A stretch of 64,000 bases of DNA, from the IMG/VR virus record IMGVR_UViG_3300025154_001556. One strand, given 5' to 3'. Position numbers and translations under genes: made by a program. The stretch is from a virus (taxonomy: Duplodnaviria > Caudoviricetes). Shown one piece after another: positions 24,295 to 60,242 of this stretch; the first letter of the stretch is position 1; every line of letters starts with the position of its first letter. A model generated the notes under the pieces. The model was given only the letters and a program-made list of their open reading frames with translations. It ran no database searches and was not told the origin of the DNA.

Positions 24295-25365
24295 TTACAG
24301 GGAACGGTCAATTATACCCATGCCCAACATACGGCTATCGAGACACGCGAATCCAAGCTCTGCCCAACCAAAAAAGCCTTGTTTTTGCTGGCGAAGTAAA
24401 ACAGGATCTTCAATTGCCTCAAACTCTTTTCTAACAGGCATTACAAGAGAATCATTTACAGACATATCAAAGCCATAAATCTGAGTCTCTCCAAGAGTAG
24501 CTATTGTACCATCAGCTGCGGTAATATTACCGTGCTCTAATGTGTAGGAATTGTACTGGTTGCTGCTATCAGCAGTAAACTTGCCGTAAGCAGACGTATT
24601 GTCGTTGATATTGTAAAGACCGGTAGCGCCAAGATGTTGAATTTCATGCATTACAACACCCCAAATCTGACCCATACCAGCTACCTGGAAGATTTCTCTT
24701 CGGGTTATCGGATCAATATCGGTATCAGTCCATTCACGGATATCAGCTGCATCTTCTGGGCTGATATAAAGGTCTGTGAGTTTACGACCAGTACGTTTAA
24801 AACCAGTAATCATTTTATTGATAAGTTCTTTTGATAGATAACCAGCACCAGTTGACCCAGGGGATATCTCGTAAATAGGTGCCGGTCTAGAACCAAGCAG
24901 ACCCTTACCTGAAAAAGAAGATGTTGCTGCAGGTACTATTACCCGCCAACCACTTTCTTCTTCATAGTTAGCTAAGTCTTTAGCTACACGTGCAGCAGCA
25001 CGTTGCGGAATATCTATACGTGAGTCTCTGGCATAGGTGATTTTCCAATCAGCCGAAGAGGCGATAGTAAAAGTAGGTATGTTTACTTCTTCACCGATAC
25101 CTTCGATGAAGTTTTGGGCAACATAACCAAGACCTGGGAGAACCCAAACAGGTATCTCAAAATCTTCAGCTACTGGGTATACAGCCTGTGCACCTGGCCC
25201 GAGGCGTTCAACAGTAAATAACTGTCGCATAACCGACTCCAACTCAATCTTTTGCAAAATAGGTACAGTCAAAGCGGCGGCGAATGCCCTATAAGCGGCC
25301 AAACCTTCTGGGGTCTGCACATTAGCTGTGGCCTTAAAAAGTTCTTGCATTTCATGTTTTTCCAT
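24295..25365 (-). CDS. Major capsid protein (HK97 fold)
   Basis: 356 aa, downstream of portal, protease and scaffold; strong RBS and terminator; C-terminal EDP..LRQQKQGFFGWAELGF.CLD typical of large-phage MCPs. Confidence 0.85.
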   Translation of the reverse strand: MEKHEMQELFKATANVQTPEGLAAYRAFAAALTVPILQKIELESVMRQLFTVERLGPGAQAVYPVAEDFEIPVWVLPGLGYVAQNFIEGIGEEVNIPTFTIASSADWKITYARDSRIDIPQRAAARVAKDLANYEEESGWRVIVPAATSSFSGKGLLGSRPAPIYEISPGSTGAGYLSKELINKMITGFKRTGRKLTDLYISPEDAADIREWTDTDIDPITRREIFQVAGMGQIWGVVMHEIQHLGATGLYNINDNTSAYGKFTADSSNQYNSYTLEHGNITAADGTIATLGETQIYGFDMSVNDSLVMPVRKEFEAIEDPVLLRQQKQGFFGWAELGFACLDSRMLGMGIIDRSL

Positions 25366-28576: not shown

Positions 28577-30379
28577 TTAATTACTGTTTCTAATAGAATC
28601 CAATTGCTGTAAAAAAGTACTATATTCTTCTTCTGATAAATCTTTTACTATGTATTCTATTGTATTTAACGACGCTTCTGACTTAGGTGCCTTTGCAGGT
28701 TTTTTAGTTAGTTTCTGTGGATCTGTTTCTTTTTTATTAGTGGGTGATGTAACTTTACCTGAAGGTCTACCATTAGAAGGTGTTCCAACAGGAGCCCCTT
28801 GAACGTCCTGTGTTTTAGCCTGCTGCCATGGACTACCAGCAATCCCAAATATACCATCCTGAACTAATTGAAATTCATTAGTCATATTATTAAGTTCATT
28901 AGGATAATCAAAACCTAATAATTCTAAGGCTGTTTGATAGCTAAGCATCCTTCTATCTACTAACTGTGATATAGTACTCATATATAGAATGATATCCTTT
29001 AATATACTATTATCCCATCTAACTTTCGGAAATCTTTCAAAACCCATAGCCTCAGCTATCTGCCTAAATTCTTTGTACAGCCACCTACTTACTTGGCGGC
29101 GGGCATATTCAATTTCTTCCAATACCCCCTTAATAACCATATTAACACTATCAGCACTGAAATTACCAACACCGTCTATAAGGGCCCTAGTCATACCTAA
29201 ACCACCAGTAATGTCCTCATTCACTTGTTCATATTTAGTTTTGCCTAAAATAGATGAAATTTCAGGGCTAACTATTTTTTCTACTTTTAATGTGTGGTTC
29301 CATACAACATCGAAGGATTTACTTGGGGTATTAAATAACGCGGCTACTGCTTCTAATTCTGCTTGTGACGTTACTGGATATTCGTCATTACCCACAGTGA
29401 TTTTTAGTATATAGTTAGATATACCATCTAGTGTACTTAAATCAGCCTCACGTAATGCTTTTTTATAGTTTAAGGAATCGAACACCCTAGTAAGTTTAGG
29501 TCTTGCATAACGTTCATAAGGTTGTTTTCTATAAGTAATAGTGCTTACTAACCTAGAATCCAGTTGTAACTCTTTACCACTTTCTGCGGCGGCCCTTAAA
29601 TCACTGGGAAGGGATTTAATCAGTATTTTCTCTTCTTCGGTCAAAGTGCTGGAAGGCTTTTTAAGTAGATCTTTTAATTCTGTGGGTGTTGTGAGTTTAA
29701 CTGACACACTGTCGAAGAGTAAATTGCCGTCTATGGTTACCAATGCTGGATTTAATACTGTGTAGGCTATGGGAAGATGCCCTTTTGACCATATTTTTTT
29801 AGCCGCGGCTGTTTCTAAATTAGCTGTCTTTTTTAATGATTTTCCTGGTGCAGGTGAAAGAGTAGATACTCTTGGTTCATATTTTGCTACTACTTTGTAA
29901 GTAGTTACCTGCCCTACTTTAAAAAAGTCTAAAAATATCCATTCTAAAACTTCATCCATAGCGATATCAAATATCCAAGTGTCATAAAAATTCTTAATAT
30001 TCTCATCATCTATATCTAATTCAAACCCCTTTACTGCTAAGGAAGCCATTAAGTTTGTTGTGGTACCTACAATTGGATCTGTGTAGTAATACCTAATAGC
30101 CTTTTTATAAGCATCTTGCGGGGTCTCATCATAAGGATCTTTGGCCAAACCAATATCTAATAAAGATCTGCTTATAGCATCTCTTGTTATTGTGGAGGCT
30201 GTTGCCTGATGTATCCTAGGTGTTACAGCGTCACCTGGTTTTTCCAGAAAAGCCAAGGACTTTTTAGTTGGCTGTAAGTAGAACATAGATTTACCATTAG
30301 CTTCATCCAGCTCTATACTTCTTATACCCACATCAGGATATTTTTCTTGTAGTTCACTTGTTAGTTTATTTAAATCCAT
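28577..30379 (-). CDS. Portal protein
   Basis: 600 aa between the terminase region and protease; YYYTDPIVGT..NL, YARP.L.RVFD, P.VRWD motifs. Confidence 0.8.
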   Translation of the reverse strand: MDLNKLTSELQEKYPDVGIRSIELDEANGKSMFYLQPTKKSLAFLEKPGDAVTPRIHQATASTITRDAISRSLLDIGLAKDPYDETPQDAYKKAIRYYYTDPIVGTTTNLMASLAVKGFELDIDDENIKNFYDTWIFDIAMDEVLEWIFLDFFKVGQVTTYKVVAKYEPRVSTLSPAPGKSLKKTANLETAAAKKIWSKGHLPIAYTVLNPALVTIDGNLLFDSVSVKLTTPTELKDLLKKPSSTLTEEEKILIKSLPSDLRAAAESGKELQLDSRLVSTITYRKQPYERYARPKLTRVFDSLNYKKALREADLSTLDGISNYILKITVGNDEYPVTSQAELEAVAALFNTPSKSFDVVWNHTLKVEKIVSPEISSILGKTKYEQVNEDITGGLGMTRALIDGVGNFSADSVNMVIKGVLEEIEYARRQVSRWLYKEFRQIAEAMGFERFPKVRWDNSILKDIILYMSTISQLVDRRMLSYQTALELLGFDYPNELNNMTNEFQLVQDGIFGIAGSPWQQAKTQDVQGAPVGTPSNGRPSGKVTSPTNKKETDPQKLTKKPAKAPKSEASLNTIEYIVKDLSEEEYSTFLQQLDSIRNSN

Positions 30380-32863: not shown

Positions 32864-34594
32864 TTACTTTATTTTTTTCTTTAATATGGCCATAGACATA
32901 TTAGTATTACTTGCCACATTAGTGATGGGCTTTGCTATTTCTCTAAAAGAAGAGTTGGGTGTCCTCTCTCTGATCATACCACCACTGCTATGTAGTACAG
33001 GATCTAAAACAGTATCCACAGGTTTACTAAGTTCTTTTGCGCCGAAGCCGGCCAGTATTAATGAGGAGTATAGATCTTTGTTTTGCCCTTTTTTGGGTGT
33101 ATCAAAGTGTAGCACACCGCTGCCTGTTTGTGTTAGTATGATACTTAGTAGTTGTTTTTTAAGTTCATATATGGCTGCGTATTGTTCATCTAATTGATCA
33201 GACCCGTCCGGCATGCGCTCTGGAAATAGTAAAAGTCTGTCTTCAAATAATGATAACGTTGAATAGTTAGCTTCTTGTATCCACTGTGGAGTAAAATTTA
33301 TTAACTCTAATATATGTTTACCTTTCCAGTGAGAATGATCTGGATTAGTTCTATCTATAATCGGTGTTGCACCATTATAACCTTCTTCTAACAAGTCACA
33401 TATAGCTTTACCACCGCCGGCCTTATCCATATATATACGAATAACGTTATACGTTTTGCAAACACTCTGTAAAGTAGTTACCATACCTTGTGTCGTGCCA
33501 TTCTTTACTTCTAACATATTTACTATTCTATTTGGTTGCCCTAATTTAACTATGGACACACCACAGCTTGCTGAGCCACCTTGATTAGGGTCTACCCCAA
33601 TGACATATTCAGCCTTACTATCTCCACTTAGTTCTAAGTAGTGCCCACTGTTACTTGTACATGCTTCTAGCATAGAAGCTTTAAAAAAGCCTTCGGAATC
33701 AGACACCATTTCTGCTTCATATTCCATACGAAATTCATGGTCAGACATTACCCGGCGGGCCTCTTCAATGTTGTTCTCGTCCAAGAAACCTTTTGGTAAA
33801 AACCAGTGAGGTATCTGATGCACCATAACATTAGACTCTTCTTCACCTTCTTGTATGATTTTATCCCAATAGGCACGCATACGCCTATACATATGGTTGA
33901 ATTTATAGAAGCCGGAAGAGGTCATTACCATCTTATTAACTTGATCATCATCAAAATCGTCTTCTGTGGCTAACCCGGATTCGATCAACAGCCTCATCTG
34001 TTCAAGGCGTCTAACATTAGCCATAGGATCTTGTTTAGTGGCGCCCATAGGTCGAAGAACCATATCAAGTATCTTATCTGGAACTTGTGCTAACTCATCA
34101 ATACATATTAAATAAAAACGTGAACCACGAATTTTAGCACCGTCATTACCTAGTGGTATGGCTTCAATGAATGAACCGTTACTAGAACCAACGGATTTAA
34201 ATTTAAGATAGGCTGTATCAGAGCCTCTAATAGGTTTCTTTTCTGTGGCTTCTCTGAGAATGGCTGATTTTGTATAGTGTTTTTCTACTTCTGAAAAAAT
34301 CATTTTTGATTGTCTAAAAGAGGGGCCTACTAAACCAACCCTGTACCCTGGATATAGCATAGCACGCAATGCAGCAAGTGTTCCAAGTAAAAAGCTTTTT
34401 CCAAAACCACGGCCGGCGACAGTGATTGTGTAGTCCCTAAACCACATATCCTCGAATACTATACGTTGTATAGGGGCTAAGTCTACACCTAATAAATCGT
34501 AGGCTGCTATACAGGGATTATTTCGATAGAACTCTATTAGCATAGGCCCTTGTCCCATTACAGCATCCATCATTCTACCTTTCTTACGAGCCAT
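32864..34594 (-). CDS. terL: Terminase large subunit
   Basis: Walker A AGRGFGKS, Walker B ICIDE, RNase-H-like VIGVDP nuclease start, C-terminal KDLYSSL. Confidence 0.92.
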   Translation of the reverse strand: MARKKGRMMDAVMGQGPMLIEFYRNNPCIAAYDLLGVDLAPIQRIVFEDMWFRDYTITVAGRGFGKSFLLGTLAALRAMLYPGYRVGLVGPSFRQSKMIFSEVEKHYTKSAILREATEKKPIRGSDTAYLKFKSVGSSNGSFIEAIPLGNDGAKIRGSRFYLICIDELAQVPDKILDMVLRPMGATKQDPMANVRRLEQMRLLIESGLATEDDFDDDQVNKMVMTSSGFYKFNHMYRRMRAYWDKIIQEGEEESNVMVHQIPHWFLPKGFLDENNIEEARRVMSDHEFRMEYEAEMVSDSEGFFKASMLEACTSNSGHYLELSGDSKAEYVIGVDPNQGGSASCGVSIVKLGQPNRIVNMLEVKNGTTQGMVTTLQSVCKTYNVIRIYMDKAGGGKAICDLLEEGYNGATPIIDRTNPDHSHWKGKHILELINFTPQWIQEANYSTLSLFEDRLLLFPERMPDGSDQLDEQYAAIYELKKQLLSIILTQTGSGVLHFDTPKKGQNKDLYSSLILAGFGAKELSKPVDTVLDPVLHSSGGMIRERTPNSSFREIAKPITNVASNTNMSMAILKKKIK

Positions 34595-39376: not shown

Positions 39377-39858
39377 TTATAAAAGCTTTACTTCTGTTGC
39401 CTGAATACCCTTTTCTGTATTCTTTAAAATAAAACTTACTGGTTGGCCGGCTTTAAGTGTTTTATAGCCGTCCATATCAATACTTGTAAAGTGGATAAAA
39501 TACTCTGCGTCTGGATTACCATCAATCAACACAAAGCCGTATCCGCGGTCATTACTAACATTTTTTTCGAGTTAGTTCGTTACACTAACCCCGCCTATGC
39601 AGGCTGCTTTATGTTTCCATAAAGAAAAGACTATATCAAAATCCTGTTAAGGATTCTCCCCATTTCGGACCACTTGGTCCTACGAGCCTTCGCTCTAGTC
39701 GTTGAACCTTCCTCTTACGAGGCTTGGCTGCTGATTATCTTCGACATTATTCGCTAAGATTTTCCAGCAATTAAAGGAGTTTCGATACATTGTTACCAAT
39801 GTAAAGGGCTCTACATAATGAACCATTTAACTGTTCCGTTAATTCTTTCTTCACTCAT
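39377..39858 (-). CDS. csp: Cold-shock domain protein, 72 aa after splicing: join(39822..39858, 39377..39558)
   Basis: Spliced product MSEERINGTVKWFSNDRGYGFVLIDGNPDAEYFIHFTSIDMDGYKTLKAGQPVSFILKNTEKGIQATEVKLL has RNP1 (RGYGFV) and RNP2 (YFIHF) motifs; GGAG RBS; missed by the ORF track. Confidence 0.93.
39559..39821 (-). ncRNA. Group I self-splicing intron (263 nt, no internal ORF; IA-like with P7.1/P7.2)
   Basis: 5' exon ends in U and intron ends in G. P1 pairs UAAAUGGU with IGS GCCCUUUA (terminal U.G wobble); P10 pairs UCAUUA with exon-2 UAAUGA. Core P AAUUGCUGGAAA, Q AAUCAGCAG, R UCAACGACUAGA, S GAUAUAGUCU. P2 UACAUUG-GUAA-CAAUGUA; P9 CUUUAUG-GAAA-CAUAAAG. Confidence 0.93.
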
Positions 39859-39915: not shown

Positions 39916-40359
39916 TTAACTTAAAAATACTTTTTTCTCTGCCTCTCTTCTATTTACCAAACCAGCAACTACCTTACCGCCGGCTTTTCTCCACAACAAG
40001 AAACTACTTGCTGCCCCTTCATAATCACCTATATTTAGTTTCCTTAATACAGTTGATTTTGAAAAATTACCTAAACCAATGTTATAAGCTAAACTAACCA
40101 AAGCATTAAATTGGTTTTGTGTTACTTTAATTTTTACAAACTCGTTAACACTTTCAGCAAAAGTCGCTACTACATGATTTAGTATTTCAGTAGCACGTTC
40201 TTTAGTTATAGGGGCGTCTGTTAACTTAACTTTTGTACCATCCTCGTAGTAAGTATTACCATAACCTATGGTAGGAATACCTGCTGGACATAGATAAGGC
40301 TTTGAACTAAATCCTTCAAATTTTTTTATTAAATCTAAACCTACTGTATCTATTTTCAT
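39916..40359 (-). CDS. GH24 lysozyme (endolysin)
   Basis: IKKFEG-x-PYLCPAGIPTIGYG catalytic E-x8-C-x5-T; NQFNALVSLAYNIG; GLVNRREAE. Confidence 0.92.
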   Translation of the reverse strand: MKIDTVGLDLIKKFEGFSSKPYLCPAGIPTIGYGNTYYEDGTKVKLTDAPITKERATEILNHVVATFAESVNEFVKIKVTQNQFNALVSLAYNIGLGNFSKSTVLRKLNIGDYEGAASSFLLWRKAGGKVVAGLVNRREAEKKVFLS

Positions 40360-40405: not shown

Positions 40406-41410
40406 TTATAGTTGAGATGCCATTAAACAACCGGCAGCTACACAAGTCATAGGTGAGGCAGCCCTTCTAATTTCACTAATCTTCATAGGTAATGTAATAC
40501 CTGATAACCGCTCCTCAAACATTCTGGTAAAACCCTCCGCCAACGTTAATCCACCTGAAACTATAATAGGCACAGGTTCTCTAAAAATGGGTAGCCTCTT
40601 TTCTTGCTTTTTAAGCTCAAAAGAAATATTTTGCAATACATAATTTATTACAGATGAGTAGTAAACTGCTATAGCCTCTGCTATCTTATCCTTAGGATTA
40701 TACAAATCAATTCCTGACTCTTTTTCTAACTGAATCAATGATGGGGACATATCTAAGGCGGTGCCTACGGAATGGTCAATAAAATCTCCTGATCTTGTAA
40801 CAGAGAATTCAACCAACGGATCACCTTGATGAATTACAGATATGTTAGCCATACCTGCGCCGAGCGATAAAGCAATGCCAGTTAAACCATCATCTAGTAA
40901 TTCTGATAGTCCAATGGCAAATGCCTCATTGATAGGTTGAGGGGAATATCCCTGATCCCTAAAAAACATATTTAACATCTCTTGATGGTACACAATATCA
41001 AACACAGCATCTACTGGTTTAGCTGGAACAGAATAAACTAATGTGTCACTACCATTACCTCTACCCACTAAATTTGAAAGTAGTACCTTTAACATAGGTA
41101 AGCTGTTTTTATCCTTAGGTGATATAACACCATTTAACATTGGTCTGCTGGAACTACAATTACGTTCCATTGCTATGTGAAGAGCGTCCTCACCAATAAT
41201 TAAAAAGTCCGCGTCGTCCTCAATAAAATTAACACCCCTCTTACTTAGGGACGTTTTAATTGATTGTCTATTAACCTCACTTTTTGGCACTAATCTGTAA
41301 AAAGCATCCCGCTCTAATTTGAATATCGGGTTTCCCTCATCATCAACTTTTGCCACACATAAAGAATTTGTACCAACATCCACACCTACACTCATATTAA
41401 TCCCTCTCAT
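40406..41410 (-). CDS. Actin-like ATPase, volactin-like family
   Basis: Phosphate-1 GVDVGT, connect-1 PINEA, phosphate-2 SLGAGMAN, adenosine IVSGG, C-terminal VAAG. Likely start 41395. Confidence 0.85.
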   Translation of the reverse strand: MRGINMSVGVDVGTNSLCVAKVDDEGNPIFKLERDAFYRLVPKSEVNRQSIKTSLSKRGVNFIEDDADFLIIGEDALHIAMERNCSSSRPMLNGVISPKDKNSLPMLKVLLSNLVGRGNGSDTLVYSVPAKPVDAVFDIVYHQEMLNMFFRDQGYSPQPINEAFAIGLSELLDDGLTGIALSLGAGMANISVIHQGDPLVEFSVTRSGDFIDHSVGTALDMSPSLIQLEKESGIDLYNPKDKIAEAIAVYYSSVINYVLQNISFELKKQEKRLPIFREPVPIIVSGGLTLAEGFTRMFEERLSGITLPMKISEIRRAASPMTCVAAGCLMASQL

Positions 41411-41441
41411 ATTTTAGTTCATTAAAGTTTATTATACAAAC

Positions 41442-42416
41442 TTATTCCGGTAGAGATCCCAATAGATCCTTAAGCTTGGCCACTTTACTAGACATTTTCT
41501 CTTGTTGAGCTATCTTAACATCTTTAAAATTTAAATGCGGTGCCATACTATTTTTAGTATCACTTGGATCTATAAAAACCTGTTCCATTTTAGGCCTACT
41601 GCTTTCCGATACAACACTTTTGGTGGTTTGTGAGTCAGTTATCTGTATATTAACCGGAGTGCTTTTTAATGTGTTTATAGTATCATCTTTAATTTTAATG
41701 ATTTCATCTTTGGATTCTAATTTAGAATTAGCAACGGCTAGATCAGTTTTTATTTGGGCCAACTCATTTTTTAAATCAGTTATAGTTGCATTTAATTTAT
41801 CACTATCACCTGAGCTATTGTGTGGATTATTTTTTAAGGATGTTAATTGAGATTTAGTAATTTCAAGTGTATGCCTAAGCTGCTCTACTTCTAGTATTTT
41901 AGGCTCGTATAAATTAATCTGTTTTTTAAGTTCAATTACTTTATCTTCCGCTAAACGTAGCTCTTTGTTTAACTTAGCTGCTGTCTCTTGTAGTAAAAAT
42001 AGCTGTGCTTGGTATTCACTTTTGGTTTCTTCTACTGCTTTGTCAACTAGAACTTTAATTTCTTTATTGGAAACAGCGTCTGTTTTTCCTTCTTCTAGTT
42101 GTCTTCTTAATCTTAGAATTTCTTCTTGTTGCTCTTTTATACGAACACTATGTTTATTTTCCATCTCAGCAGAAACCTGTAATATAACCTTATTTAACTC
42201 AGTATCAAATTCTTCGGCCGTGTATATAGCGGCTGTATTACCAGTAGTAGAGGTAGTGGTTAATTGTCTAGTTAGTAACTCTATTTGGTCTTTAAGTTCT
42301 CGTACAACATAAGAATTTTGCTCTAATTTTTGTCTTTGCTGCAAATCACGTGGTCCAGAACCACTTTTCAGTGGCCTGGACTTATCACGTGTATCTCTTT
42401 CTTTATTGTATTCCAT
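41442..42416 (-). CDS. Long coiled-coil protein
   Basis: 324 aa, E/K/L/Q heptads, short conserved-looking C-terminal tail (RPKMEQVFIDP...VAKLKDLLG). Confidence 0.75.
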   Translation of the reverse strand: MEYNKERDTRDKSRPLKSGSGPRDLQQRQKLEQNSYVVRELKDQIELLTRQLTTTSTTGNTAAIYTAEEFDTELNKVILQVSAEMENKHSVRIKEQQEEILRLRRQLEEGKTDAVSNKEIKVLVDKAVEETKSEYQAQLFLLQETAAKLNKELRLAEDKVIELKKQINLYEPKILEVEQLRHTLEITKSQLTSLKNNPHNSSGDSDKLNATITDLKNELAQIKTDLAVANSKLESKDEIIKIKDDTINTLKSTPVNIQITDSQTTKSVVSESSRPKMEQVFIDPSDTKNSMAPHLNFKDVKIAQQEKMSSKVAKLKDLLGSLPE

Positions 42417-42421
42417 TATAC

Positions 42422-43009
42422 TTATTTTCTTTTATATTCTACTTGATCAATTAAACCATAAGATTTGGCTTCCTCTGAGGACATGAAGTAATCACGATGC
42501 ATATCTAATTTAACTTTATCAATATTTTGACCAGTCATTTCAGAGTACTGGGCTGCCATCTTATCATACATCCTCTTAGTGTGCTCCATGGTTTGGAAAA
42601 TGTCTCCTGCCTTACCTTGTATACCTGTTGATAGCTCATGAATCATAATCTCACAATTAGGTAGAGCGTAGCGTTTACCCTTCGTGCCGGCTGCTAATAT
42701 AAATGAACCAGCGCTTGCCACTTGACCATAACCAATGGTTACAATGTCAGGTTTGATATAGTTCATGGTATCGTAGATGGCGTACATAGCTGTAATCTGG
42801 CCGCCTGGACTGTTGATATACATGTAAATGTCAGAATCAGATGAGTCTGTTTCTAAGAACAGAAGCTGTGCTACAACTAAATCTGCCATATCTTGATTAA
42901 ATTCACCAGATATGAAAATGATTCTGTCTTTAAGCATTCTTGAAAAAGGGTCGTATGCTCTTTCAGATTCTTCTCTACTTGATTTTTCAAAAATATAGGG
43001 TGTTCTCAT
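42422..43009 (-). CDS. clpP: ATP-dependent Clp protease proteolytic subunit
   Basis: DPFSRMLKDRIIF, YINSPGG, catalytic Ser in ASAGS, His in MIHE, Asp in RDYF, AKSYGLID. Confidence 0.95.
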   Translation of the reverse strand: MRTPYIFEKSSREESERAYDPFSRMLKDRIIFISGEFNQDMADLVVAQLLFLETDSSDSDIYMYINSPGGQITAMYAIYDTMNYIKPDIVTIGYGQVASAGSFILAAGTKGKRYALPNCEIMIHELSTGIQGKAGDIFQTMEHTKRMYDKMAAQYSEMTGQNIDKVKLDMHRDYFMSSEEAKSYGLIDQVEYKRK

Positions 43010-43066
43010 AATTCGGTAATTCTCCTTAGTTCTAGTTAAAATCTTAAATAACCTTGTGTTCTGTAT

Positions 43067-43095
43067 ACTTTAACAACAAAAAAAGTATTTGTCAA
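43067..43095 (-). promoter_or_regulatory. Sigma70-type promoter for the clpP-coiled-coil-actin operon
   Basis: TTGACA-17 nt-TAAAGT on the minus strand, about 60 nt upstream of clpP. Confidence 0.7.
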
Positions 43096-43398
43096 GTTTT
43101 TACTACATTATCAAATGATTTATTTGTGCCAGAAATTGGTTGTTGTTGGTAACGGTTAAAGCAGTATCTACGTTGCCTCAGGAATGGGGTTTAAATGACC
43201 GCTACACGATTTTTATATAGACAACCTAACTACCGACACATTGTAATTAAAAACAGCTCTACGGGGCTTGTATTGATTTATAACATTTGCAAAAGTTTGT
43301 TTTTAAAAAGTAGTTTTCTGTTTATGGTTGGTTGGCTTTATATTTTTTGAAAAAAAAATTAAAAGCCTATATTTTTATTATTAAACTATATTTAAATA

Positions 43399-43478
43399 CT
43401 AGTATACCGTTATTCTAGTATACTTGTTATTCTGGGAGGACATTCATGCCCGGTACCCACAGGGCGTTCATGCCCGGT
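43399..43478. repeat. Iteron-like direct repeats beside an AT-rich tract
   Basis: TTCATGCCCGGT at 43443 and 43467; CTAGTATAC at 43399 and 43415; GTTATTCT at 43409 and 43426. Confidence 0.6.
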
Positions 43479-43484
43479 GCCTAC

Positions 43485-43982
43485 CTACTTAATCTGCTGT
43501 TTTTCCGCACGTTCAGCTAAAGCTAACTTCATAAAGTGTACTTCGGAAAACAAGTTTTCTTTTATCTTACCCAGAGAGTCAAACTCCCAAGTGCCCAGGA
43601 TATAAATATTGTATGTCTTGTCATAACGTACTACTTTTTCTACCTTTATAAATCCCTGTTCTTTTAGCTTTTTTATTTGTCTACGTATAGATGTGACATT
43701 ACAACCAGCTATCTCGGCCAGCGCCTCCTGAGACCAACTGGTGGCTAGAACATTCTTTTTATAGTGTGTATGATATAAATCAAACTTACCATTATGTTCA
43801 CTAAATCCTCTAATGATATTGGCTTTAAGAAATCTAAGTAATGCACTTTCAGGTGTTATATTAAATCTGAAGAAGGCTGTACTTTTTTCTATTAATAAAT
43901 GGGTAGTAACATGTAAATTGTATAAATGCTTTTGGTTCATAGTAATACCTTTTCTTTTAAACAAACCACGGGTTAGTGTCAT
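43485..43982 (-). CDS. Winged-helix DNA-binding protein, replication-initiator-like
   Basis: SWSQEALAEIAGCNVTSIRRQIKKLKEQGFIKVE...NIY is an HTH_36-type pattern. Confidence 0.7.
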   Translation of the reverse strand: MTLTRGLFKRKGITMNQKHLYNLHVTTHLLIEKSTAFFRFNITPESALLRFLKANIIRGFSEHNGKFDLYHTHYKKNVLATSWSQEALAEIAGCNVTSIRRQIKKLKEQGFIKVEKVVRYDKTYNIYILGTWEFDSLGKIKENLFSEVHFMKLALAERAEKQQIK

Positions 43983-45464: not shown

Positions 45465-46745
45465 TTAACATAATTTTTTATCTTGTAGTAAGTCAGCTAG
45501 TGCTATTAGACCACCTCTATGTGAGTTTGGTAGTTCAACATAAGCTAAACTTTTATGTGGTAGAATTCTTAATAATTTTAGTAAGCCTGATTCAGAAGGT
45601 CTTACAACATTGTATGTTTGTGCTAAATCACCTAATAGTATTAGTTTACTTCCTTTATTAGCCCTTGATAATATCATACTCATAGTATCTATATCTATAA
45701 GTTGGCATTCATCACAAATCATTATGTCTGATTCTAATATACTCATACCTTGAATTACATTTATTGGCACAGCTTCAAATTTATCTTGAAAGTATCTATC
45801 CTTAACTATATCATACTTTATACTATTTTGGTCTTTACTTGATCCTTGATTTCTGGTATTAGCATATAGATAATATAATGCACTTAATATACCAGCAAAC
45901 CACGCTTCCATTTTTGCTTGTTTATCACCGGGCAAGAACCCTATATCGTATTTATGGCTTATACCAATTGGAGGTCTGGTGATAAATATTTTATTGTCAC
46001 TGTTGCAAGATAAGGCATAGGCTGTGCTTAGTAAAGTTTTCCCTGTTCCCCATTTACCAGTAATTAAAACACCGTCAGCTTCTGTCATAGCGTATATAGC
46101 ACATATTTGGTATATATCCAGCGCTTTTAGTTTATTACCCTCCACAACAACTTCTCTATACTCAGGCATATTATCTATACGTGACACTGTGCCTTTAATA
46201 GGGTTAGTAGCATATACGTAAGCATTATTTAATATAACAAACTTCCAGCATTCAGTGTCTATGTCTAATTGTAATTCTATATTAAAATCATATAAACTGT
46301 AATTTTGTAAGTAAGTAAAGTTCTCTGGTAGATCTTTGATATCTAAATGTATGTATGGTTTAAATATACCGTTTGGTATAATATCATATAATACAGTGTC
46401 CACACCCTTAGTTGCCGCTATAACTGACATAGACAAATCTTTTGTGGCTAAGTCGGCTTTATTTTTTATAGCCGCGTCAATTATTAAAGTATCGTTTGTT
46501 TTTAATTCCTCGTTGTCAACAGCCAACACTAATCTGTTTGGGTGTGCTTCTCTAAAAGCAACTATTTCATAGATTGCTGTTCTAGCACTATAAGATAAAT
46601 CAGGATTAAATTTATGTTTATCAAGTTCTTTCAATACTGTTAATGGAACTATTACTTTTTCATATTTATTTAGCGACTTAAATAATATTTTAGGGTCATC
46701 TAATAATATATTTGTATCAATTAAGATATTTTTATTTTTTAACAT
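45465..46745 (-). CDS. phoH: PIN-PhoH family protein (PhoH2/YlaK-like)
   Basis: N-terminal PIN ILIDTNILL...VLKELD...NDTLII; P-loop GKWGTGKT; ITRP; ICDECQ; LLGDLAQ; SHRGGL. Confidence 0.88.
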   Translation of the reverse strand: MLKNKNILIDTNILLDDPKILFKSLNKYEKVIVPLTVLKELDKHKFNPDLSYSARTAIYEIVAFREAHPNRLVLAVDNEELKTNDTLIIDAAIKNKADLATKDLSMSVIAATKGVDTVLYDIIPNGIFKPYIHLDIKDLPENFTYLQNYSLYDFNIELQLDIDTECWKFVILNNAYVYATNPIKGTVSRIDNMPEYREVVVEGNKLKALDIYQICAIYAMTEADGVLITGKWGTGKTLLSTAYALSCNSDNKIFITRPPIGISHKYDIGFLPGDKQAKMEAWFAGILSALYYLYANTRNQGSSKDQNSIKYDIVKDRYFQDKFEAVPINVIQGMSILESDIMICDECQLIDIDTMSMILSRANKGSKLILLGDLAQTYNVVRPSESGLLKLLRILPHKSLAYVELPNSHRGGLIALADLLQDKKLC

Positions 46746-48309: not shown

Positions 48310-49161
48310 TTAAAGCATAATAAGTGATTTTAATATATCTAACAAAGTCATTTTCTCATTTAAACCAATAGTTTTTAGATAATTTTCTCCAACTATCCAA
48401 CGTTCCTTTGAATAAAACCTATCTTTATATATTATTTTAACAAATACAATATTATCTGGGTATATCCTTATTATGTACATATCACCATCATCTAGTATAG
48501 TACTTTCCCTAAATGTGGTTTTACTTACTGTATCCCCTTGTTTAAAACTTTTAAATTCTTTTTCACAATAAGCTACTTTTTCTTGTTCAAATTTTAGATG
48601 CTGCTTGTAACTAAAATATTTAGCTGTTGTATTTGTTGTTGTAGGTAATATAAGCATAAAACTTATTATAGCTATCCAACCTTTAAAAGAAAGGCCTAAA
48701 ACCCATCGTTTAATCCTATATAAAATACGTTTATCGCTGAGTTTAGATACACTAGTAGTTGGTATAATAATATTGTCAGGAGATGCTTCTCCTCTTAGAT
48801 GTTTATTGGCTATAACTATAAATGCCCTAGCATCAGGAGGTTTTACCATAATCATTTCTCTTGGTACTTTATGAAATTCAACCAATTCACTTACTGTATC
48901 TTCTGGCAAGCTTCTAGATAATATAAGGCATTTATCAGGATCTGCACCACCTCTGCCCACAAGCTCTAAACCGCTTTCTTTATTTTCTAGTATTGTATCA
49001 ATGATATATAAGTCGTAGTCGTACCTCATCATACGTTCTCTGGCTTCTTTTAAACTACTAACTGAATGTACTACACAGTCGTATGGTGCCAGTAATCCTT
49101 TGTATAGTTGTATCATAGCTAAACTTTCTTCAGCTATCAGTACTGCCTTTTTATTGGCCAT
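48310..49161 (-). CDS. Atypical response-regulator receiver domain fused to a TM helix and C-terminal extracytoplasmic domain
   Basis: VLIAEE, DLYIID (phospho-Asp), MVKP; hydrophobic WIAIISFMLILP. Confidence 0.7.
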   Translation of the reverse strand: MANKKAVLIAEESLAMIQLYKGLLAPYDCVVHSVSSLKEARERMMRYDYDLYIIDTILENKESGLELVGRGGADPDKCLILSRSLPEDTVSELVEFHKVPREMIMVKPPDARAFIVIANKHLRGEASPDNIIIPTTSVSKLSDKRILYRIKRWVLGLSFKGWIAIISFMLILPTTTNTTAKYFSYKQHLKFEQEKVAYCEKEFKSFKQGDTVSKTTFRESTILDDGDMYIIRIYPDNIVFVKIIYKDRFYSKERWIVGENYLKTIGLNEKMTLLDILKSLIML

Positions 49162-49174
49162 AGTTATAACCCCG

Positions 49175-50251
49175 TTATTTAAATATAATATCTAAATCAT
49201 AATTACAGGCTTTTATAACCGCCAAACAAGCCTCTACGACTTTATCGTCGTATAGTTTACCAGAACCTTTTACTATTTCTTCAATGGCCACAGTAACACC
49301 CAAAGAGGCCCTATATGGTCTATGTGAAGCCATAGCCTCTACTACATCAGCTACACTGATTATTTTAGCTTCTATGGATATTTGGTCACCCCTTAAACCA
49401 TTAGGATAACCAGAACCATCTAGCCTTTCGTGATGTTGTAATACCATACGGGCTATTGGTGCTTCAAAAGGAATATCACTAATTATATTGTATCCTTCTA
49501 TGACATGTTTTTTTAATAATTTAAATTCTGTTTCACTTAATCTAGTTGGTTTAACTAATAACTCTTGCGGAACATAGAATTTACCTATATCATGGAGCAT
49601 ACCTGCCAGTTTTATATGTTCGATTTGGGATTCATCTAGGCCATAATACTCGGATATTTTTATTGCTAACGCCGTTACGCGTTTTTGGTGCCCAGCTGTG
49701 TATGGGTCACGTATCTCCATAGTTTTTGATAAAGCTTCAACAGTTTTGTATAAAACACTACTTAAATCTTTGTTAGCTACTGCTAGTTTTTCATTTGTTG
49801 CTGCTAGATTATCTGTTCTTTCTTTAACCAATTTTTCTAGTTGTTGTTGATACATCTGGTTATCTCTTACCAAGTCATGTTTTTCTAGGCATTGAGTTAC
49901 AGAATGTTTTAAAATTTCTAGTGTTATTGGTTTGGTTATAAAATCACAAGCACCTTTTCTTAAAGCATCTACCACAAACTCATTACAAGTGTTACCTGTT
50001 ATTATAATAATTTGTGATGGTGGATATAGTGCTTTTATTTTATCCATTAAATCTAAACCCATAGCATCAGGAAGACTTATGTCTAATAATACTATTGGTG
50101 GTGAGTATTTTTTAAAGGCGGCTATACCTTCAACTCCCTTAGTAGCATTAATTATATTGTCGAACCCAATTACAGATAACATTGTACTTATAACAGCCAA
50201 TATAGATTGATCATCATCTATTACAAGTATAGGTTCTTTTATTCTAGTCAT
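49175..50251 (-). CDS. Response regulator with HD-GYP cyclic-di-GMP phosphodiesterase domain (RpfG-like)
   Basis: REC: ILVIDDD, LLDISLP, ITG, FITKP. HD-GYP: RDPYTAGHQKRV, LHDIGK, QHHERLDGSGYP, VADVVEAM..HRPYR. Confidence 0.93.
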   Translation of the reverse strand: MTRIKEPILVIDDDQSILAVISTMLSVIGFDNIINATKGVEGIAAFKKYSPPIVLLDISLPDAMGLDLMDKIKALYPPSQIIIITGNTCNEFVVDALRKGACDFITKPITLEILKHSVTQCLEKHDLVRDNQMYQQQLEKLVKERTDNLAATNEKLAVANKDLSSVLYKTVEALSKTMEIRDPYTAGHQKRVTALAIKISEYYGLDESQIEHIKLAGMLHDIGKFYVPQELLVKPTRLSETEFKLLKKHVIEGYNIISDIPFEAPIARMVLQHHERLDGSGYPNGLRGDQISIEAKIISVADVVEAMASHRPYRASLGVTVAIEEIVKGSGKLYDDKVVEACLAVIKACNYDLDIIFK

Positions 50252-55879: not shown

Positions 55880-56083
55880 ATGTTTATTTGTGAGATATGT
55901 AACTGTGCTTTTGAGAGGGAGTATTCTCCAATATGTGGTAAACAACTGTGCTATGATGCCTTCATGCATATGGTCTACGATGGTGATGACAACTGGGGCC
56001 CTGAGAATGGGAATTGTTGCCCTTGTAATAGTCCTAACTGTGATGGCACTTGTGAGAAAAACACCAAGAAAAAGGAGGTATAG
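55880..56083 (+). CDS. Cys-rich small protein (67 aa)
   Basis: True start MFICEIC after the repeated leader. Confidence 0.65.
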   Translation: MFICEICNCAFEREYSPICGKQLCYDAFMHMVYDGDDNWGPENGNCCPCNSPNCDGTCEKNTKKKEV

Positions 56084-56994: not shown

Positions 56995-57753
56995 ATGAAA
57001 TCTATTAAATCAATCGTTGTAGCAGCAGTTATCATTCTTTCCCTCGTAGCTTGTAAACAAGAACCTGTTGAAGTAACTTCTGCCCCTGTGGTAGTTGGGA
57101 ACACATACACTACTGACGTTCTTCGTTATGAAGGAGAGATGAGGGATAACGTCCCCAATGGTAAAGGAGTTCTCACTTTCAGTTGGGGTGACAATTACGC
57201 TGGTGATGTGGTCAATGTTGTGCCCAATGGTGAAGGCGTTATGCGCTATGTGGATGGCTCCATCTACCGCGGGCAGTGGAAAGACGGTCTTCGTCACGGA
57301 CAAGGGCGTATGGAGACACCTGATGGTAACTGGTATGAGGGTTCCTGGGTAGCAGGTAGCAGACAAGGTCAAGGAACCATTAACCTGGATGGTGTTAAAC
57401 AGACCGGCCTCTTTGAGAATGACCAACCCAAAAAGGTGGTTGTTTTAGACACCAATGTTTGTGTGGAAGGTAATTGTCGTTCAGGTTATGGGGTTAAAAA
57501 CACCCCTGACGGCGTATACTATGGGGAGTTCGAAGATGGTGAGTTCTATGGACAAGGCACCTTTAAGTATAACAATGGTGACGTATTCAAAGGGAGCTTC
57601 ATCAAAGGTACTATGTTCGGCGCCGGGACACTCACCAGCACAAACAATCATTCTGTAACCATGGGTATTTGGGAGAAGGGTAAGTGGGTAGAAGGCAATC
57701 GTCGCTATGACGATGGTACTCCGGAATACATCCTTCTGAGACATATACTGTAA
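56995..57753 (+). CDS. MORN-repeat lipoprotein
   Basis: Lipobox LSLVAC; repeated Y.G.W.DG.RHGQG and Y.GEF.DG.F.GQG MORN units; C.EGNC..GYG. Confidence 0.88.
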   Translation: MKSIKSIVVAAVIILSLVACKQEPVEVTSAPVVVGNTYTTDVLRYEGEMRDNVPNGKGVLTFSWGDNYAGDVVNVVPNGEGVMRYVDGSIYRGQWKDGLRHGQGRMETPDGNWYEGSWVAGSRQGQGTINLDGVKQTGLFENDQPKKVVVLDTNVCVEGNCRSGYGVKNTPDGVYYGEFEDGEFYGQGTFKYNNGDVFKGSFIKGTMFGAGTLTSTNNHSVTMGIWEKGKWVEGNRRYDDGTPEYILLRHIL

Positions 57754-59159: not shown

Positions 59160-59248
59160 GGGTTTAAGTGAAGGGCAAACTTGTCGTAAGGCAAGGACGC
59201 AAAACTATGGGCCCTCATTATGAGGGCCGCCAAGTTACCAAACAAACC
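59160..59248 (+). promoter_or_regulatory. c-di-GMP-I (GEMM) riboswitch-like aptamer
   Basis: AAGGGCAAAC-UUGUC-GUAA-GGCAAG-GACGCAAAAC-UAUGG-GCCCUCA-UUA-UGAGGGC-CGCC-AAGUUACC. It shows the GGCAAA junction, a GNRA-capped P2, GACGCAAA, a P3 hairpin and the 3' GUUACC, then an SD and ATG at 59268. Confidence 0.8.
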
Positions 59249-59267
59249 GAATTATAGGAGAATTACC

Positions 59268-60242
59268 ATGAAGAAATCAATCGTTATTTCCGCAATCATT
59301 TCTCTTATTTCTACTCTTTCTATTTCATCAGCACAGGGCGAGCTCATCGATGGGCGCTACACTGTTCTGGATACCACCACCAACTACGAGTGGATGAAAC
59401 ATCCCTTCGTATACACTAACTGGTATGATGGTAAGGAACAGTGTGAAGACCTCGTGCTGGATGGTCATGATGACTGGGTTATGCCTTGGCCTGCCCATAT
59501 GAAAACCATCAAAGGCGTTATCCAGTACTTGGCCTACAACTATATGTTTTATCATACCATCAGGGAGTATTCAGCTACGGCGGACTACTCATACAACATT
59601 GATACTGGTGTTATGGGTGTTGTGTCCAAATACAATCTTGGAAACGTTCGTTGTATGCGCGATGCTTCGGCTGATATGGCTGAGGTTATTACCAGCGTAA
59701 CTATCCAGAAAACCGGTTACTACACTATGGCCACTACTATGGCTAATGTAACTGGTATGGTATCGGCATTTGTTGATGGTGTTATGGTTGCTTCTTACAA
59801 TACCGATTATATCAGCGGCCCTGTTGGTATTGGCAGCCTCGTAGCCGGCCAGAATCTGGAAATCACAGTAAATGGTTCAAAAGCGGAGGGAATTGAGGAG
59901 TTGGACTGGCAGAGTTGGAATATGACCTTTTCTGCCGGCGACATTGAAATCTATGTCGAAGACCCGCCCATGCCCACGAGTGGCGTACAGACAATGGTGG
60001 TAGAGGAAGAGGAGCTTCCCCCACCAGCAATCGTTAATGTAAAAGTTAACAAAGCACAGATACTCAACAGTAAGAACAAGAGTACTCTGACGTTGGTATT
60101 GGACGTTCCTGCGCAGATTACCCTGGAAGACGGACCTACCGATTTTGTGGTTTTACTGTACACAAATGGTTCGGATACTGCTTACATGGGTAATACCGAA
60201 ATGAGCCATAAGGGTAAAGGGAATATCATTTCCAATAAGTAG
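59268..60242 (+). CDS. Secreted protein with DUF1566 (Lcl C-terminal)-like domain
   Basis: Signal peptide MKKSIVISAII...AQG; TVLDTTTNYEWMK, WYDGKEQCEDL.LDGHDDWVMP, VRCMR. True start after AGGAG at 59268. Confidence 0.75.
   Translation: MKKSIVISAIISLISTLSISSAQGELIDGRYTVLDTTTNYEWMKHPFVYTNWYDGKEQCEDLVLDGHDDWVMPWPAHMKTIKGVIQYLAYNYMFYHTIREYSATADYSYNIDTGVMGVVSKYNLGNVRCMRDASADMAEVITSVTIQKTGYYTMATTMANVTGMVSAFVDGVMVASYNTDYISGPVGIGSLVAGQNLEITVNGSKAEGIEELDWQSWNMTFSAGDIEIYVEDPPMPTSGVQTMVVEEEELPPPAIVNVKVNKAQILNSKNKSTLTLVLDVPAQITLEDGPTDFVVLLYTNGSDTAYMGNTEMSHKGKGNIISNK

Follow-up and report, generated by a model that had tools for sequence, protein, structure and literature searches.

The window analysed here, the whole 64,000-nucleotide stretch of viral DNA (Duplodnaviria; Caudoviricetes) held in IMG/VR as record IMGVR_UViG_3300025154_001556, carries three consecutive genes that encode ClpP, a helical rod protein and an actin-fold ATPase. 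We consider it probable that this locus is a phage two-gene cytoskeletal module, in which a volactin-family actin is paired with a dedicated adaptor (the rod protein), and that the module is co-transcribed with a host-type ClpP from a promoter for host RNA polymerase. By analogy with archaeal volactin, the phage probably builds actin filaments of its own. The family membership and fold of the actin, the conservation of the three-gene order, and the homology of adaptor tails together with their position beside actin genes are established here. An initial annotation, made from the letters of the sequence, had described the three open reading frames (ORFs) in this arrangement, and all three do lie on the minus strand. 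The features of the module are as follows (aa, amino acids; nt, nucleotides).

43067-43095, minus strand: sigma70-type promoter-like site, with TTGACA at 43095-43090, a spacer of 17 nt, TAAAGT at 43072-43067 and TG before the -10 hexamer
42422-43009, minus strand: clpP, 195 aa
41442-42416, minus strand: adaptor, a helical rod protein of 324 aa
42327-42416, minus strand: N-terminal motif of the adaptor (residues 1-30, M.YNKE ... GPRD.Q.RQ), basic and predicted to be disordered
41445-41603, minus strand: C-terminal tail of the adaptor (residues ~272-324, RPKME.VFIDP ... ESHI.V ... KV.KLK.LLG.LP)
40406-41395, minus strand: volactin-family actin-fold ATPase, 329 aa (the longest ORF, from 41410, is 334 aa)

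The actin and its family

On sequence and model evidence the ATPase is a true member of the volactin family and not an MreB, ParM, FtsA, Hsp70 or sugar kinase. It matched the Pfam Volactin profile (PF25216) with 209.7 bits against a cut-off of 35 (E 9.6e-62), residues 6-331 aligning with positions 1-320 of the 321 in the profile, and it scored below the cut-offs of the MreB models PF06723 (23.9 bits, cut-off 27) and NCBIfam NF010539 (19.3, cut-off 293) and of the salactin model NCBIfam NF053533 (20.2, cut-off 400). There was no ParM/StbA-type Pfam match at E<=0.01 (AlpC was not among the sequences compared), Pfam gave neither a sugar-kinase family match nor an Hsp70 substrate-binding domain, and a sequence search of the PDB returned MreB as its sole match (E 0.035). 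Every motif that stays unchanged when phage, planctomycete, Omnitrophota and haloarchaeal members are aligned is present, namely DxGT (phosphate 1), RPM..G, VPA.P.D, YH, NE, S-x-G-[AG]-G-M (phosphate 2; here S-x-G-A-G-M), GD.ID, KE and GG[TL][ST] (adenosine). The initial annotation had read a series of peptide segments as closer to volactin than to MreB, ParM or FtsA and had called the ATPase complete. All of the segments that it quoted are in the translation, and both judgements agree with the full-length profile match and with an AlphaFold2 (AF2) model built on a 40-sequence alignment (predicted local distance difference test, pLDDT, 96.5; predicted template-modelling score, pTM, 0.92).

In a Foldseek search of the PDB the first 24 neighbours of this model were MamK, MreB and BeeR, with the MamK filament 5ljv foremost, at template-modelling (TM) scores of ~0.65-0.70 and 14-18% identity (16% for MamK); Hsp70 entered the list only from about rank 48. 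The clustering with sugar kinases or Hsp70-type ATPases for which the initial annotation had allowed was not seen. Placement by tree also put the protein inside the volactin family and apart from MreB. The tree is a quick maximum-likelihood one whose single outgroup, E. coli MreB, sits on a branch of 9.4 changes per site; within it the clpP-linked phage actins make up a single clade (Shimodaira-Hasegawa-like approximate likelihood ratio test, SH-aLRT, 97) that is nested in a subclade of phages and fragments of metagenome-assembled genomes (MAGs; SH-aLRT 90), separate from the planctomycete, Omnitrophota and haloarchaeal group. The family is a large one, with 942 clusters at 50% identity. Volactin homologues were found at 491 loci in species-representative genomes, chiefly of Planctomycetota and also of Omnitrophota, and further members are carried by other huge phages and by haloarchaeal megaplasmids, the latter with 31-33% identity to the phage actin.

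Classical actins have DxGGG at phosphate 2, where the whole volactin family, haloarchaeal members included, has S-x-G-[AG]-G-M. Judged from the alignments, the serine is a family trait rather than a mark of decay, because all members share it, those of haloarchaea among them. In two relatives (P0124, of 702 aa, and L164:4983-7082) an intein of ~370 aa with a homing-endonuclease-like insert occupies this very loop, beginning with C and ending with HN between ..GISAS and CGAGM... Inteins typically occupy functionally essential sites. The replacement of the aspartate by serine could also be taken to mean that the actin-fold protein is a non-polymerising, chaperone- or kinase-like ATPase with the helical protein as its regulator or substrate, and among the viral models of BFVD, none of which was close, the nearest were indeed Hsp70 homologues and gp506 of Bacillus phage G (TM score <=0.65). 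We regard this as quite unlikely: the serine is the signature of a family that includes the filament-forming volactin (PMC10869688), several of the 24 foremost structural neighbours are present in the PDB as filaments, and neither an Hsp70 substrate-binding domain nor a sugar-kinase match accompanies the fold.

The adaptor and its C-terminal tail

That the rod protein is a dedicated actin partner and not a random coiled coil is well supported by sequence comparison, because its tail recurs in the proteins encoded upstream of volactin homologues in distantly related lineages. The C-terminal block is present in all orthologues of the adaptor, and a profile of the homologous tail (about 45 aa) was searched against the 4863 ORFs of 85 loci outside the clade that carries the trio. 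It gave 38 matches at E<=10, and 30 of the 38 fell in the ORF that ends just upstream of a volactin homologue, in each case at the extreme C-terminus (Fisher p = 5e-45); single matches are weak, and the weight rests on this positional enrichment. The loci with such an upstream gene belong to Planctomycetota and to other phages. In Planctomycetota the partner is an unannotated coiled-coil protein of 210-560 aa with the ending ..LF..ESN[LV]..[IV].VK....G[VI]...L.KL[KR].L[QK].., and the tail-bearing gene is nearly always directly upstream of the actin, as seen at L058, L109, L051 (chromosome OZ244999.1), L067 and about 25 other loci. Some planctomycete lineages have instead volactins of 600-940 aa with a long N-terminal coiled-coil/acidic extension, or tandem volactin domains (P0125), and natural fusions of a coiled coil with a volactin domain occur as well (P0138, P0165). 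A two-gene module can be defined by the tail consensus .. LF .. ES[NH][IL].V.. K .. L.KL[KR].L .., which is a product of this analysis and not a curated model; the 324-aa adaptor belongs to it, as a tail-bearing product encoded beside an actin gene.

The adaptor has no match to any Pfam, PHROG or NCBIfam family. Its AF2 model has helices at residues 22-54, 67-108, 117-196 and 201-252, a disordered stretch at 253-300 and a short helix at 308-318. Every trio locus encodes an orthologue at this place; the lengths vary from 185 to 450 aa, with both ends conserved and the difference lying in the middle. At the N-terminus Y3, K5 and P22 are invariant and G21, R23 and Q26 nearly so (28-32 orthologues). 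This motif, modelled with a pLDDT of ~52, is confined to the clade in which clpP lies directly upstream. Elsewhere the same tail is found on quite different proteins: the partner in sister phage L130 has only 125 aa and ends in ...GRPKMDEYFINPSD...AKRLRDILNKRKD, a small partner of this kind is also encoded in L127, and those of L131, L048 and L091 combine the tail with an N-terminal transmembrane helix. The comparison suggests that the conserved tail accompanies the actin and that the other end varies: some partners have a membrane anchor there, others a rod, to which this clade adds the basic N-terminal motif. We propose the tail as a candidate actin-binding element. The contig of an Omnitrophota MAG (L063, 3279-8139) appears from its gene order to be a paired-actin variant of the same module, since a ParA-like ATPase, a coiled-coil protein and a volactin homologue are followed there by a second, longer volactin homologue (492 aa, PF25216 261 bits) and then by a 200-aa protein with the tail-like ending ..ILDKLKKMKGGT.

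Another possibility is that the locus serves genome segregation or positioning in the manner of ParMRC or AlpAC, with the basic N-terminus of the adaptor binding repeated phage DNA sites and the filament pushing or positioning the DNA so bound, perhaps in a plasmid-like carrier state. The order of adaptor and then actin, and the tail directed at the actin, resemble ParR-ParM and AlpA-AlpC (PMC4446434, PMC5539076), the N-terminus is both basic and disordered, the volactin genes of L063 stand beside a ParA-like gene, and repeats are present upstream of the promoter:

43396-43484, no strand assigned: short tandem repeats, two copies each, consisting of a 24-nt unit (43437-43484) and the palindromic ATACTAGTATAC (43396-43423)

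The 24-nt repeat comes directly after the stop of a gene at 43485-43982 that resembles HTH_36 proteins and replication initiators, and, as far as their position and form can tell, the repeats are possible operator, iteron or centromere-like sites. Against this, there are two copies of each repeat, no ribbon-helix-helix (RHH) or helix-turn-helix (HTH) fold could be recognised in the adaptor by Pfam, PHROG or NCBIfam or in its model, the partner is anchored by a transmembrane helix rather than DNA-binding in several sister phages, and integrase or plasmid maintenance genes were not seen in the window. Segregation is on balance a rather unlikely function.

The operon, its ClpP and their surroundings

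The order clpP, adaptor, actin was kept in every related locus with sufficient flank, that is, across the whole phage clade as sampled by ~40 IMG/VR loci together with ENA, NCBI and JGI contigs of up to 308 kb, at actin identities of 52-100%, and conservation of the trio, on which the initial annotation had made its proposal depend, is therefore secure. The gene after the actin in these relatives is always an endolysin, of a family that varies. In some relatives the set is interrupted, though not broken up, by homing endonucleases, which separate clpP from the adaptor in L019, L028 and L038 and the adaptor from the actin in L010 and L011. Two contigs assigned to a Saccharibacteria MAG (L044) and a Fermentibacteria MAG (L045) also carry the phage trio, with actins 61-62% identical to that of the window; they are most likely phage contigs that were binned into MAGs, and L045 agrees in length and range with the IMG/VR viral contig of L024.

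The promoter-like site lies ~57 nt upstream of the clpP ATG, within an intergenic region of 475 nt. With 10 of 12 matches it is the top-scoring site of the region in a promoter scan and corresponds to the TTGACA-17-TAAAGT promoter put forward in the initial annotation, and the relative L011 has TTGACA-17-TATAAT at the equivalent position; the number of promoter-like sites in the region, 13 against 15.2 expected, is not above chance. The gaps between genes had been given as less than 30 nt. This is right for clpP and the adaptor (5 nt) and too short for the adaptor and the actin, which are separated by 31 nt, or by 46 nt if the actin begins at ATG 41395. That codon is the more likely start, as compared with 41410, because it has a GAGGGA Shine-Dalgarno sequence 6 nt upstream and is the one used in the public gene call (P0001, 329 aa). 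No terminator-like signal was found directly after the actin gene, and the transcription unit probably continues, to judge from the layout, into a cold-shock gene split by an intron and, 46 nt downstream of the actin, the endolysin gene, which is context and lies outside the module:

39916-40359, minus strand: endolysin (Phage_lysozyme, PF00959, 156.6 bits)

A terminator-like site at 39824-39807 was rejected as the end of the operon, as it is inside the intron. The latter is a group I intron (RF00028, 88.2 bits, full model) at 39607-39830 on the minus strand, which divides the cold-shock-domain gene (csp) downstream of the endolysin into exons at ~39857-39831 and 39532-39377; the csp genes of L003 and L008 are uninterrupted and encode 72-73 aa.

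From its sequence, ClpP is of the cellular type and not of the head-maturation type. It matched PF00574 with 240 bits (cut-off 20.2) and passed the cellular subfamily model NCBIfam NF001368 (252.7, cut-off 249), staying below the cut-offs of the model for ClpP-related head-maturation proteases, NF045542 (76.9, cut-off 120), and of the equivalog TIGR00493 (236, cut-off 308.6). The best PDB match had an E-value of 1.9e-60. A full-length alignment with E. coli ClpP shows 47% identity and places the Ser-His-Asp triad on S97/H122/D171; the axial region at the N-terminus is kept, and the residues at the unfoldase-docking positions are for the most part aromatic or hydrophobic. A gene for a cognate unfoldase was not seen in the window. 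These properties bear on the suggestion that ClpP and the coiled-coil protein are a prohead protease and its scaffold, with the actin-like gene unrelated to either. The top PHROG matches of ClpP are in fact 'head maturation protease' families (phrog_94, 1.7e-42), no protease was recognised by Pfam or PHROGs between the portal and major capsid genes, and scaffolds are often helical and encoded right after the protease. The outcome of the two subfamily models and the full-length identity to E. coli ClpP point the other way, as do the host-type promoter and the position of clpP, ~12 kb from the portal-capsid block and past the terminase and nucleotide-metabolism genes. The head block moreover has a helical, scaffold-like 240-aa gene of its own (as yet a lead only), and the tail of the adaptor is common to volactin partners in the non-viral genomes of Planctomycetota. 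We have rejected this explanation, which is highly improbable for a cellular-type ClpP so far from the portal-capsid block.

A more serious question is whether ClpP belongs to the cytoskeletal module at all. There is about an even chance that the actin and adaptor form a real module and that ClpP is an independent host-takeover gene, boosting or redirecting host Clp proteolysis, that merely shares their promoter and synteny. ClpP is missing from sister phages L130 and L131, where actin and partner are both present, no ClpP gene is found near volactin in the planctomycete, Omnitrophota or haloarchaeal loci, the flanking genes are conserved as a block, and clpP can be parted from the adaptor by a homing endonuclease. 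On the other side, ClpP-family genes adjoin volactin in at least two more unrelated phage lineages, a divergent one lying directly upstream of the volactin gene and overlapping its start in L129 and another lying directly downstream of the actin in L176, and they occur within 4 kb of it in two others (L160, and L173/L175/L181). The N-terminal motif of the adaptor is likewise confined to the clpP-carrying clade, which counts as one event. A functional link of ClpP to the filament is accordingly a fair question with, at best, even prospects and perhaps rather poorer ones, and a physical link is much less likely than a functional one.

The window is phage DNA, with genes for a large terminase (32864-34594), a portal (28577-30379) and a major capsid protein (24295-25365) besides the endolysin, a deoxynucleoside monophosphate (dNMP) kinase, PhoH and HNH. 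The operon is nearly letter-identical in groundwater metagenomes of at least nine studies, the identical actin protein is on more than 55 contigs (the longest 237 kb), and relatives of the phage are on contigs of 264-308 kb. From the near-identical operon in groundwater metagenomes and the size of the relatives' contigs, we assign the sequence to an uncultured groundwater jumbo phage. Megablast of 24 kb of the window against the phage collection and tblastn of the adaptor against phages gave zero matches, and the terminase is <=28% identical to that of any cultured phage, and so the phage is without a cultured relative. No chimallin or other nucleus genes were seen in the window. The syntenic block of these phages runs from PhoH through HTH and the trio to endolysin, csp, dNMP kinase, HD and terminase.

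Several other features of the window deserve mention. The PhoH gene of the block is a PIN-PhoH fusion (PIN_4 + PhoH; 45465-46745, minus strand) found at the same position in all clade relatives. Two adjacent response-regulator genes lie on the minus strand at 48310-50251, the first (49175-50251) coding for a receiver with an HD_5/HD domain of the HD-GYP type and the second (48310-49161) for a receiver only. Near position 56000 the G+C content (GC) rises from ~0.35 to ~0.44 and coding moves from the minus to the plus strand; beyond this point lie the gene for a MORN-repeat protein (56995-57753) and one of the DUF488 type. In this higher-GC, plus-strand right end of the window is a cyclic di-GMP (c-di-GMP) riboswitch (c-di-GMP-I-GGC, RF03167, 66.6 bits; 59165-59243, plus strand), unusual as a phage-borne element, that overlaps the start of an ORF at 59220-60242 with a weak Lcl_C-like domain. 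Taken together, the riboswitch and the response-regulator genes suggest that the phage reads or manipulates c-di-GMP signalling.

A working model and its relation to known systems

In the model that we propose for the module, the actin would bind ATP and polymerise in vivo into filaments like those of archaeal volactin, and the adaptor would be an alpha-helical, probably dimeric rod whose C-terminal tail docks on the actin and whose clade-specific, basic N-terminal motif holds a cargo or an anchor. In other phages the transmembrane helix of the partner would take the place of this motif, under a shared logic by which the tail binds the filament and the other end sets its location. A host unfoldase (ClpX, ClpA or ClpC) would serve as the partner of ClpP. 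Candidate roles for the whole are the positioning of phage DNA or particles, as for PhuZ and AlpC, attachment to the membrane, which is considered because the partners of sister phages are anchored there, and remodelling of the host. The initial annotation had envisaged a system of filament, adaptor and proteolytic turnover; the first two components are well supported by the family assignment and by the linkage of the tail, and the third is not, given L130 and L131, which do without ClpP. A bolder version would make the adaptor a double-ended tether that holds the volactin filament by its tail and recruits ClpP or the host unfoldase by its N-terminal motif, giving a filament-localised protease. 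We think this unlikely. If it were true, it would be spatially organised protein degradation of a form not known in any virus, and the ClpP-family genes beside volactin in unrelated phage lineages would reflect a general partnership.

A number of observations weigh against the model of a phage filament with its dedicated adaptor and co-transcribed ClpP. Polymerisation is not a property that can be read from sequence, and we infer filament formation here by analogy; the aspartate of classical actins at phosphate 2 is replaced by serine, though throughout the family and in volactin itself. The adjacency of the three genes in the clade is a single evolutionary event and counts once, because the whole region is syntenic in these phages, and the tolerance of homing endonucleases between them means that tight translational coupling is not required. 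Sister phages L130 and L131, as noted, keep partner and actin without ClpP, and two huge phages (LR745208, LR756511) carry the actin with neither ClpP nor a recognisable tail partner. The profile of the phage tail gave no match to the tails of the haloarchaeal partners (...GLMSRLRSLFFE, ...GLLGSIRSLFR). Finally, the prediction of an actin-adaptor complex, a check that the initial annotation had recommended, was run on the orthologous pair of L011, which stands in for the proteins of the window (actin 72% and adaptor ~50% identical), and the modelled interface gives weak support to contact between the two. The pair had a median ipSAE of 0.43 as compared with 0.23 for the best of three controls, with a contact agreement between runs of at least 51% and a partner pLDDT of at least 57. 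Of 80 solved complexes, 58 reach the mark applied to such predictions, as do 2 of 110 mismatched pairs, and scores of 0.60 or less at that mark come from 7 of the 80 solved complexes and from both of the mismatches that pass.

Few phage cytoskeletons are known, the tubulin PhuZ and the actin AlpC being the examples, and no report of volactin-type actins in phages or Planctomycetota was found in the literature that could be searched. Here a whole clade of groundwater jumbo phages encodes a member of this actin family, which was described from haloarchaea only in 2024, and invariably pairs it with a dedicated adaptor. Through the tail of this adaptor the phage systems are connected with a so far unannotated partner gene that accompanies volactin homologues across hundreds of genomes of Planctomycetota. 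A volactin with a tail-bearing partner is in this sense a widespread module, in which the partner tail is newly defined and provides a candidate binding peptide of ~25-45 residues. It brings two questions within reach of experiment, the anchoring of volactin filaments and the use that phages make of an actin of their own, and the co-encoded ClpP raises a possible link between filaments and proteolysis.

The closest known system is volactin itself (VolA, HVO_2015) of Haloferax volcanii, the one family member known to form filaments in vivo; these are dynamic, span the cytoplasm and contact the membrane at their tips, and the factors that bind volactin have yet to be identified (PMC10869688). 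The phage actin is a full-length member of the same Pfam family with the same motif set, and in both systems a partner gene lies directly beside the actin. In H. volcanii this neighbour is the CdpA-like membrane protein HVO_2016, with four transmembrane segments, and pull-downs of CdpA were enriched for volactin (log2 fold change 2.5, p = 0.06) (PMC12126565). A DUF7139 membrane protein is encoded directly upstream of the volactin homologue on megaplasmids of Haloarcula and Halogeometricum, and the haloarchaeal DUF7139 neighbour has a long acidic disordered linker and a short C-terminal helix. The differences are several: volactin is cellular and the phage protein viral, in a clade separate from the haloarchaeal and planctomycete members; the haloarchaeal partner is a four-transmembrane protein whereas that of the phage is a soluble helical rod; and the phage tail is homologous to those of planctomycete and phage partners and not detectably to the haloarchaeal one, whose resemblance to it appears to be by analogy only. 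ClpP is co-encoded in phages only and not with the cellular volactins, and the role of volactin in cell shape is not transferable to the phage actin.

AlpC/AlpA of the Corynebacterium glutamicum prophage CGP3 and ParM/ParR of plasmid R1 are alike in having the gene for an actin filament beside that for a small cargo adaptor, and with AlpC a phage-borne actin is already known to assist the replication and transport of viral DNA (PMC4446434, PMC5539076). The module described here differs from both in its actin family and in its adaptor, a long coiled coil with a family-specific tail. As the adaptor has no recognisable DNA-binding domain and there is no defined centromere, the locus does not qualify as a ParM/AlpC-type system, and it is part of a lytic-looking jumbo phage rather than of a prophage (AlpC) or a plasmid (ParM). 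MamK and MreB share the four-subdomain actin fold at a TM score of ~0.65-0.70, with only 14-18% identity. For the phage ClpP, which is without a propeptide, the known counterpart is cellular ClpP, such as that of E. coli (PDB 1tyf), at 47% identity. The spindle that PhuZ forms in nucleus-forming jumbo phages (PMC4244570, PMC8314001) is similar in being a cytomotive filament of a jumbo phage for intracellular organisation; PhuZ has the tubulin fold and no paired adaptor gene, whereas the phage here has an actin fold and encodes a partner for it.

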